Sequence record: PQ511148.1
Source: Escherichia phage NHEP10
Reading direction: 5' to 3' (one strand)
DNA length: 64,000 nt
A program made the position numbers and the translations under genes. Shown here piece after piece: positions 62,596 through 63,618 of this stretch (position 1 is its first letter; every line of letters starts with the position of its first letter). The notes under the pieces are model-generated. The model searched no databases. It was not told the DNA's origin and saw only the letters and a program-made list of their open reading frames with translations.

Positions 62596-63228
62596 TCACA
62601 GTACGTTAGTTACAAGGGTAATGATTTCTTTGGACACATTAGGGAAATCAATGTAAGTATATTTACCACCGATCTTAATCTTAACATCATTTTCAAGAGA
62701 AGTAAACAGCTTTGATTCAGTTTCTGACATGTTGTATGCAAAAATTCTAAGAGAACCATCTCGACGAATTTCGATCTGACGAATACCTAGAACTCGTTTT
62801 GCAAATCGAACTTCCAAGTTACTACGGTTTTCACCAATTTCTTTAACTTCAACTTTATCTTTAATATTTTCAAAAACAAAGTTTGCTAGTTCATGCATTT
62901 CAGGAGTAACTCCACGTGCTTTTCTGGTGTTACGTTTCTGAAGAAGTTCTGGAGCATTTTCTTGAGCAAATAGGTCTGCAGCTTTTTGGATAATATCCAT
63001 TGCTTCGCCTGTTGCTATAAGTCCATCACCAGATTTTTCGACTAAACCTTTCTTAATCAATACACCAATGTTAGAGTTAACAACCGATGCATTGTATTCC
63101 GCTTCCAGAGCTTCACGGACATTGGCAGCAGTGGTGAAGTTGTTCTTAATGATATAAACCATTATTGCAGCAGTTTTTTCATTCAGAGCGTTTTCAGAAG
63201 CTTTGATGATGTAAGTAACTTTAGACAT
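62596..63228 (-). CDS. motA: middle-transcription activator MotA
   Basis: 210 aa; near-identical to recalled T4 MotA (MSKVTYIIKAS...SNIGVLIKKGLVEKSGDGLI); early promoter 63267-63295. Confidence 0.95.
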   Translation of the reverse strand: MSKVTYIIKASENALNEKTAAIMVYIIKNNFTTAANVREALEAEYNASVVNSNIGVLIKKGLVEKSGDGLIATGEAMDIIQKAADLFAQENAPELLQKRNTRKARGVTPEMHELANFVFENIKDKVEVKEIGENRSNLEVRFAKRVLGIRQIEIRRDGSLRIFAYNMSETESKLFTSLENDVKIKIGGKYTYIDFPNVSKEIITLVTNVL

Positions 63229-63297
63229 TTTATTTCTCCAATTTGGTTGTTTTGTTTTGATAGGTCTATAATATCATGTTTGAAGCAAAAGTAAACT
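63221..63297 (-). repeat. promoter-leader cassette, copy 1 (motA)
   Basis: 77 bp almost identical to 63542-63618, covering the first three codons (ATG TCT AAA), leader, -10 and -35. Confidence 0.85.
63267..63295 (-). promoter_or_regulatory. early promoter (GTTTAC-N17-TATTAT) for motA
   Basis: Matches the T4 early promoter consensus. Confidence 0.6.
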
Positions 63298-63333
63298 TTA
63301 TTTTGGGCTCTTTTTCAAAAGCCCTGGTAAAAT

Positions 63334-63549
63334 TTACAAACTCATTTCTTTAATAAGGCTAATAAGTTTTGCCTTTTTAGAACGAAGCTTTTCTAAATGA
63401 TGTCCATTTGAACCGCGAACCACTAAAGAATTGATTTCAACTTCTAAGAAATTTAATTCTTCAACAAGTGCTTTACGTGGAGCATTCATACCGGGTTTAA
63501 CTTTACCGAAACGAGTAGTTGTGTTTTGGGTTAATTTCATTTTAGACAT
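63334..63549 (-). CDS. hypothetical basic protein (motA.1-like by position)
   Basis: 71 aa; early promoter 63589-63617; 5' leader almost identical to the motA leader. Confidence 0.5.
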   Translation of the reverse strand: MSKMKLTQNTTTRFGKVKPGMNAPRKALVEELNFLEVEINSLVVRGSNGHHLEKLRSKKAKLISLIKEMSL

Positions 63550-63618
63550 TTTATTTCTCCAATTTGGTTGTTTTGTTTTGATAGGTCTATACTATCATGT
63601 TTGAAGCACATGTAAACT
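63542..63618 (-). repeat. promoter-leader cassette, copy 2
   Basis: About 74 of 77 nt identical to copy 1. Confidence 0.85.
63589..63617 (-). promoter_or_regulatory. early promoter (GTTTAC-N17-TAGTAT)
   Basis: Near-identical copy of the motA promoter-leader; drives 63334-63549. Confidence 0.6.

Follow-up and report, generated by a model that had tools for sequence, protein, structure and literature searches.

Tandem early-promoter/stem-loop cassettes upstream of motA and the likely modular shuffling of a small early gene in RB69-like and JS98-like phages

Phages RB49 and phi1 differ by open reading frames (ORFs) flanked by promoter-early/stem-loop elements (PeSLs), each made up of an AT-rich stretch, an early promoter, a stem-loop, a Shine-Dalgarno sequence (SD) and an ATG; excised mini-circles have been detected, and crossovers map between the -10 box and the ATG (Arbiol et al. 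2010, PMC2839356). The PeSL consensus for T4 and PST is TTTACW-N17-TAYWAT with the stem-loop upstream, and one example lies in the ndd region (Comeau et al. 2014, PMC4122927), which neighbors the locus analyzed here. That locus is the motA region of Escherichia phage NHEP10 (record PQ511148.1), studied in a stretch of 64,000 nt that we call the window, where two near-identical promoter-leader-start cassettes precede motA (copy A) and a 71-aa early gene of unknown function, ORF71 (copy B). We consider it very likely that homology-driven deletion, conversion and replacement between these tandem early-promoter/stem-loop cassettes represent PeSL modular shuffling. Because the underlying concept is already published, the locus is a confirmation and extension of it rather than a discovery; in the searchable library we found no paper linking PeSLs to RB69 or Mosigvirus or describing this slot. 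The T-even internal-protein (IP) locus, whose polymorphism Repoila et al. are said to have described in 1994 (cited in PMC2839356 and PMC4122927), is alike in that small early genes are exchanged between conserved regulatory repeats, but it involves another locus and other genes.

The two cassettes (63221-63297 and 63542-63618) lie in direct orientation with a 321-bp period and are equal at 74 of 77 positions (96.1%), in keeping with the roughly 96% given in a preliminary description of this DNA. A repeat finder lengthened the pair to 86 nt (63220-63305 and 63541-63626, 93% identity), within which the longest exact block spans 51 nt (63220-63270 = 63541-63591), and no other exact direct repeat in the window is as long; in ten shuffles the longest measured 15-18 nt. 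Alignment confirmed that the copies diverge completely where the preliminary description had placed the boundary, directly past the third codon (ATG TCT AAA), and that similarity ends a few bases upstream of the -35 box. The 3' end of the cassette, GGAGAAATAAAATG, occurs in the window at these two copies only. The likeness also extends well beyond the promoter hexamers, to which it might have been confined. Among the 12 early-promoter-like cassettes on the minus strand of the window, copies A and B share 94% of the 48 nt from the -35 box (mean of 43% and maximum of 75% for the other 65 pairs) and 88% of the 17-nt spacer (mean of 32% for other pairs).

Both copies follow the same order, with a short A-rich flank, GTTTAC, a 17-nt spacer ending in TG, the -10 box, a leader, the SD and AUG UCU AAA. 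This layout agrees with the T4 early-promoter design of an UP-like region, -35 box, TGn and -10 box (PMC2988021), and we read the two repeats as tandem copies of one T4-type early-expression cassette with a predicted strong sigma70 promoter (GTTTAC, TGn, TAnTAT). Copy B (63541-63626, minus strand; repeat family, promoter scan and alignment) has its -35 GTTTAC at 63617-63612, TGn and the -10 TAGTAT at 63594-63589, the SD GGAG at 63560-63557 and ATG TCT AAA from 63549. Copy A (63220-63305, minus strand; repeat finder, alignment and promoter scan) has the corresponding elements at 63296-63291 (GTTTAC), 63273-63268 (TGn and TATTAT), 63239-63236 (GGAG) and from 63228 (ATG TCT AAA). The sequences upstream of the -35 boxes are CCCAAAATAAA and TTTTTCTCACAAAACA, and the SD region reads GGAGAAAUAAA. 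The leader, about 33 nt long and reading AGACCTATCAAAACAAAACAACCAAAUU ahead of the SD, is A/C-rich and alike in the two copies, and folding predicted no structure in it. Dhakavirus and the Marfa-like Klebsiella phages have kept the orthologous promoter-leader of motA.

A stem-loop stands before each cassette; neither this feature nor the match to published PeSLs was part of the preliminary description. Upstream of copy B is a predicted intrinsic terminator (63629-63658, minus strand) in which the hairpin GGGAGC-UUCG-GCUCCC (63658-63643; centroid -12.9 kcal/mol, z = -3.5 versus shuffles) is followed by UUUUGUGCAUUUUU (63642-63629). It is annotated as a terminator in SA79RD and WFK, and our scan lists the hairpin on the plus strand only. 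In RB69 and JS09 the loop of this post-gene-52 hairpin is inverted (GGGAGC-CGAA-GCTCCC versus GGGAGC-TTCG-GCTCCC at 63643-63658 in the window), with the stem unchanged. Upstream of copy A, directly after the ORF71 stop, lies a second stem-loop, GGGCUUUU-GAAA-AAGAGCCC (63305-63324, minus strand; -12.3 kcal/mol, z = -3.15 versus shuffles), whose stem is preserved in Dhakavirus via compensatory changes (GAGCUCUU...AAGAGCUC). The terminator scan gave no call here. Because no U-run follows, this hairpin is probably an attenuator or an RNA 3'-end stabilizer for the ORF71 transcript rather than a full terminator, and read-through into motA may occur.

All the sequence-level features that define a PeSL appear to be present. 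Copy A reads TTTACT-16-TATTAT and copy B TTTACA-16-TAGTAT, each with TG before the -10 box, and the spacer becomes 17 if the -35 is read as GTTTAC. The TAGTAT of copy B is one position off TAYWAT; it is a single-nucleotide polymorphism of the window phage and a few relatives, and PHB12 and HX01 have TATTAT. The hairpins at 63643-63658 and 63305-63324 supply the adjacent stem-loops, and the indels and replacements described below (321-bp and 325-bp deletions, an ORF replacement and a second cassette pair) have their junctions inside the elements. As for the setting that PeSLs prefer, among non-essential ORFans in hyperplastic regions, ORF71 is dispensable and ORFan-like, its partner gene is motA, and gene 52 lies to its other side. 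The locus resembles the RB49/phi1 PeSLs in that tandem copies flank small ORFs and exact loss of the ORF in relatives leaves one chimeric element, with crossovers placed between the -10 box and the ATG. It differs from them in its T-even type promoters (GTTTAC...TAnTAT) with the stem-loop upstream, in place of near-perfect TTGACA/TATAAT boxes with G/C-tract stem-loops often inside the promoter; moreover, one partner here is the promoter of a regulatory gene, motA, instead of both being ORFans. With the T4/PST PeSLs, for which an exchange of ndd.4/.5 against ORF268/269 is described, it shares the consensus, the upstream stem-loop, the SD and ATG on the 3' side and the same genome region (ndd-ac-52-motA). 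That work concerned one phage pair, however, and did not describe the slot upstream of motA, presence and absence at population scale, conversion tracts or transfer between Tequatrovirus and Dhakavirus.

The gene behind copy A is motA, as had been proposed (62596-63228, minus strand; 210 aa, activator of middle-period transcription; identified by Pfam, PHROG and relatives' annotation). Its product carries both the N-terminal activation domain (PF09114, MotA_activ; 1.1e-39, 134.9 bits versus a cut-off of 26.1) and the C-terminal MotCF DNA-binding domain (PF09158; 2.1e-08, 34.6 bits versus a cut-off of 25), and it matches PHROG 1345 at 3.3e-90. ORF71 (63334-63549, minus strand; 71 aa, from the ORF list) matches PHROG 6200 at 2.8e-40 and occurs in 76 Mosigvirus and 17 Dhakavirus records, at one place per record; a second copy, as unequal crossing-over would produce by amplification, was seen in none of these ORF71-bearing records. 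It had no match in Pfam or NCBIfam, and its best hit among Protein Data Bank sequences was ribosomal L23 at E of about 0.4, which we judged to be chance. In the AlphaFold2 model (mean per-residue confidence score, pLDDT, of 80) a basic, disordered N-terminus leads into a helical hairpin, and Foldseek with this model returned generic helical hairpins only, none at E<=0.001. ORF71 appears to be a small, conserved, non-essential and dispensable ORFan-like early gene that is missing in about half of Mosigvirus genomes.

We then compared the locus with its relatives, sampled as 30 regions from GenBank phages; a MotA-based search for related loci gave 2 loci. Mosigvirus (RB69-like) phages match the window region at up to 99.3% identity (PHB12) and fall into two classes, one with a full-length 1411-bp match (100% coverage) and one matching in two pieces that span about 1090 bp (83% coverage) and are 321 bp shorter (RB69, AV116, mar005P1, JK42 and others). 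The difference is a 321-bp repeat unit, present or absent among relatives, that consists of one cassette, ORF71 and its downstream hairpin (63220-63540, not assigned to a strand). The unique interior of the unit, ORF71 DNA, was found at >=95% identity in 76 Mosigvirus records and the region at >=95% in 155, so about half of Mosigviruses lack the unit. Assembly artefact was ruled out as the origin of the two states, which both occur in dozens of independent isolates including the Sanger-era RB69 and JS98. The preliminary description had supposed that the direct repeats could delete the gene between them and that the cassettes had arisen by promoter capture or shuffling through recombination. 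Both suppositions are borne out in relatives, by these losses of exactly one unit with their chimeric cassettes in Mosigvirus and, in Dhakavirus, by an exact-unit deletion and by replacement of the ORF between the same cassettes.

Junctions were tabulated from the cassettes of 11 two-copy and 14 single-copy Mosigviruses. In every single-copy genome (14 of 14) the gene 52-side flank is joined to motA inside the repeat, giving one chimeric cassette. The leader of that cassette is of the ORF71 type (ACAAAACAACCAAA) in 12 genomes and of the motA type (ACAAATACTAAT) in the other two, RB69 and pEK20, so at least two crossover zones are needed. The first is a 37-nt block between the spacer and the leader; the second is the final 22 nt (TTGGAGAAATAAAATGTCTAAA), or anywhere in the repeat if the parent was already homogenized. 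The motA-type leader is the ancestral one and resembles the Marfa-like motA leader ACAAATGAATGAA.

Two-copy genomes carry further traces of exchange. The ORF71 copy keeps its own leader in all 11, and the motA copy has a motA-type leader in seven and an ORF71-type leader in four (the window, NHEP11, PHB12 and UGJNEcP2). Three two-copy genomes have a motA-type spacer on the ORF71 copy, and NHEP11 has the TAGTAT -10 variant on both copies. We interpret these mosaic leader, spacer and -10 states as gene-conversion tracts, laid down in both directions. It is because the window carries the ORF71-type leader on both copies that its exact block is as long as 51 nt; its genotype reads as a homogenized state with the longest uninterrupted homology, from which the common single-copy class plausibly arose directly. 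The nearest neighbor of the window in the motA tree, which has few informative sites, is the single-copy phage AV116. One-copy and two-copy genomes are intermixed in neighbor-joining trees of the flanking genes (motA and the 3' end of gene 52), which, being poor in informative sites, we used for interspersion only; in the gene 52 tree the window has a long branch, an artefact of the gene ending at the window edge. Both states also occur within single species of the International Committee on Taxonomy of Viruses, one with JS09 and ST0 (two-copy) and pEK20 (single-copy), another with APCEc01 (two-copy) and JK42 (single-copy).

Instead of UvsX-type homologous recombination or mini-circle excision, slippage during replication or copy-choice at short direct repeats might have produced the deletions, a pathway that we regard as rather unlikely. 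T4 rII provides classic examples of deletions between short repeats. Parents resembling HX01 or ST0 would need a crossover within 22 nt (TTGGAGAAATAAAATGTCTAAA) to yield the 12 single-copy genomes with ORF71-type leaders, and a deletion in AV114 at another cassette pair (below) crossed over within 16 nt. Against this, the conversion tracts, together with the inter-genus island described below, require real recombination between molecules, and circles have been demonstrated experimentally for RB49 and phi1. Sequence cannot tell the pathways apart, and any circular intermediate at this locus would be presumptive.

In Dhakavirus (JS98-like), ORF71 occupies the same site between that genus's own duplicated promoters, with a 325-bp period. 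The two Dhakavirus promoter cores are 0-1 mismatches apart and 3-4 mismatches from their Mosigvirus orthologues in a 41-nt mismatch matrix (whose T4 column was out of register and was disregarded), and the derived states GCTTT and TACTAT are common to both Dhakavirus copies; the cores have undergone concerted evolution. The slot takes three states in this genus. It holds ORF71 in some phages; in NC-G there is an exact 325-bp deletion with its junction within the promoter core; and in IME281 this promoter core and the hairpin enclose an unrelated 75-aa ORF (ORF75) instead. In a further Dhakavirus, IME08 (HM071924 / NC_014260), the interval from gene 52 to motA, which matches in three pieces, measures 1849 bp (1551 bp in JS98), suggesting that some 300 bp have been inserted in addition, in the slot or close to it.

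These phages also bear on the polarity of change. It is conceivable, if unlikely, that the single cassette is ancestral in Mosigvirus and that the ORF71 module (leader, ORF, hairpin and promoter) was inserted into the motA promoter-leader by homologous integration from a circular or linear donor and then spread by co-infection. Such integration is the deletion reaction run backward and has been proposed for PeSL mini-circles; the slot holds no gene in T4, one of two genera has clearly gained the ORF75 module in recent times, and the one-copy and two-copy states are interspersed among close relatives. Yet ORF71 has diverged between Mosigvirus and Dhakavirus as far as motA has (71.3% and 71.7% nucleotide identity between the window and JS98; ratios of nonsynonymous to synonymous substitution, dN/dS, of 0.19 and 0.25). 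At motA the two genera are sister relative to T4, with MotA identities of 69% between them and about 50% to the T4 protein. Equal divergence and this sister relationship argue that ORF71 predates the Mosigvirus radiation at the site, where it is ancestral and its absence a loss. Judged from these comparisons, ORF71 is an old, selected resident of the slot and the single-copy Mosigviruses represent losses; individual lineages may have re-acquired the gene from a sibling Mosigvirus.

Exchange between genera is most evident for ORF75, which has no BLASTP similarity to ORF71 and no homologue that we could find in the window. It occurs in 168 phage records, mostly T4-like, where it lies directly upstream of motA. 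We compared IME281 with Yersinia phage ZN18, called T4-like because its MotA is 98% identical to that of T4. Their gene 52 and motA sequences are 40-80% identical per 50-nt segment, whereas an island of about 400 bp, with flanks of 40-78% identity, is 86-100% identical; it starts at the -10 region of the ORF75 promoter, takes in ORF75 and the hairpin and ends at the motA start. At the protein level, ORF75 is 99% identical and MotA 50%. The ORF75 module was clearly transferred between the genera in recent times, with breakpoints in the promoter and leader elements; ZN18 would have ORF75 under a T4-type motA promoter and motA under a Dhakavirus-type promoter imported with the module. A different mosaic is seen in the Mosigvirus pEK20, which at positions 1650-1880 of its compared region has a Dhakavirus-type small ORF and a GGAACC-TTCG-GGTTCC terminator, with Mosigvirus sequence resuming right after the T-run of the hairpin. 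This phage is an inter-genus mosaic with its breakpoint at the stem-loop.

Outside these genera, Klebsiella phage Marfa and contigs from the IMG/VR database have other genes directly upstream of motA, each with a motA-like early promoter (GTTTACTTTGCTTTCAAAACAGG...); one encodes a 29-aa membrane peptide and the other a protein with a HELAHAL zinc-protease-like motif. These different genes indicate that variation in this slot reaches well past Mosigvirus and Dhakavirus. Scanning IMG/VR for the SD-start 22-mer as a pattern gave 7 loci, three of which are unrelated genes sharing the SD and start by chance.

The same slot in three genera, either empty or filled with at least two unrelated cassettes, with yet other genes in Marfa-like phages, raises the idea that dedicated, site-specific machinery directs cassettes there as in an integron, for example a nuclease or recombinase recognizing the stem-loop or promoter. 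The promoter and stem-loop are where breakpoints cluster, and Arbiol et al. left site-specific recombination open. The likeness to integron gene cassettes lies in a fixed slot by a promoter at which small promoter-dependent ORFs are gained, lost and replaced. The slot differs from an integron, however, in having no integrase and no attC or attI, each module brings its own promoter, and exchange appears to be homology-driven. We found no recombinase or conserved attachment-like core, and the crossovers fall at differing positions wherever homology exists, as expected of homology-driven exchange, so we consider such a mechanism very improbable. Finally, selection for an optimal early promoter and leader might alone have made the copies alike, with no recombination between them. 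Purifying selection on the element is real, as across genera the motA promoter-leader has changed far less than coding DNA (2-5 mismatches per 41 nt versus about 28% coding divergence). Against this idea, other early promoters in the window average 43% identity (32% in the spacer), and it is effectively refuted by the mosaic leaders and spacers, the shared -10 variant of NHEP11 and the chimeric junctions, which convergence could not produce.

The upstream copy is predicted to express ORF71 and the downstream copy motA. Because the copies are near-identical, both genes would have the same immediate-early transcription and translation signals, including identical ribosome-binding sites, and both mRNAs would probably be equally sensitive to RegB/S1 at their GGAG. 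The RegB/S1 target is an 11-nt single-stranded site, GGAGRAYARAA, with the T4 optimum GGAGAAUAAAA (PMC1702504), and the T4 motA mRNA is cleaved by RegB inside its SD GGAG (PMC2988021, PMC1702504). Joint RegB shut-off of the ORF71 and motA mRNAs is plausible. The cassettes are direct repeats with a 321-bp period in a phage highly prone to recombination, and they act as recombination substrates. Relatives show three outcomes. A crossover between the copies removes exactly one unit and leaves a chimeric cassette in front of motA, non-reciprocal exchange (gene conversion) homogenizes the copies, and the promoter and stem-loop elements serve as homology anchors for ORF swaps between phages, including phages of different genera.

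Several points weigh against this account. The promoter, attenuator and RegB-site activities are predictions from sequence. The SD region GGAGAAAUAAA fits the RegB/S1 consensus at 9 of 11 positions, deviating at positions 7 and 8, and the hairpin upstream of the motA copy, having no U-run, is non-canonical as a terminator. ORF71 occurs at this one locus only in public phage genomes, so there is no sign of the gene moving to other sites. The interspersion of states, seen in flanking trees with few informative sites, might have come about without recurrent deletion if co-infecting phages exchanged alleles. Finally, motA is a core regulatory gene, whereas published PeSLs come mainly from hyperplastic regions.

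A second cassette pair in the window (31234-31329 and 31680-31775, minus strand; -35 at 31320 and 31766) behaves like the motA pair. Its copies are 77% identical over 96 nt with a 446-bp period, and they flank a 123-aa ORF (31325-31696) in the gene 30.x / rIII region. The Mosigvirus AV114 lacks exactly the 446-bp unit, with the crossover in the shared GGAGAATAAAATGAAC. The SD region of this pair, GGAGAAUAAAA, matches the RegB optimum at 11 of 11 positions. Including this pair, the window has ten further minus-strand cassettes of the GTTTAC/TGn/TAnnAT/leader/SD/ATG type, with -35 boxes at 49946, 46650, 39934, 38751, 37345, 35219, 31766, 31320, 24782 and 9153; those at 9153, 24782 and 35219 are 65-70% identical over about 50 nt. 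Further cassettes with such extended similarity could be recombination substrates. Two other repeat tracts were seen, a tandem duplication of about 288-289 bp at 12710-13331 (217 nt at 75% and 123 nt at 76%), probably within a coding region, and periodic 108-120-nt repeats at 51408-52118 (69-81% identity), which resemble the repeated protein modules of fiber-like genes.

On the other side of the terminator lies a 26-aa hydrophobic ORF with a TTG start (MSALALGFLGAIAALVIWLYWLDKHD; 63658-63738, minus strand), read from the sequence and overlapping the gene 52 stop. It is the positional analogue of T4 motA.1 (49 aa in T4), is annotated as a coding sequence in HX01 and is annotated in some relatives only; pEK20 has a 34-aa Dhakavirus-type version in its place. 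The 3' end of gene 52 (topoisomerase II medium subunit; PHROG 551 and relatives' annotation) occupies 63735-64000 on the minus strand and runs beyond the window edge. Annotation pipelines are inconsistent in this region.

A more far-reaching proposal, which we hold to be improbable, is that the motA promoter-leader is a preferred, quasi-dedicated docking site in at least three T4-like genera, through which phages trade small immediate-early genes (ORF71, ORF75 and others) that come automatically under joint regulation with MotA. If this were true, the cargo proteins could modulate the early-to-middle transcription switch or host takeover in a host-specific manner, and the tandem promoter with its non-terminating hairpin could tune MotA dosage.

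For phage propagation, the repeats imply that two-copy therapeutic phages would be expected to lose the 321-bp unit. Even for the essential regulator motA, the expression signals themselves have been replaced, such that most single-copy Mosigviruses drive motA from the former ORF71 promoter and leader. Crossover zones are resolved to tens of bases, and gene-conversion intermediates are visible, the window genotype among them. With three states in three genera, the locus is an unusually complete natural record of how small early genes are gained, lost and swapped in T4-like phages.

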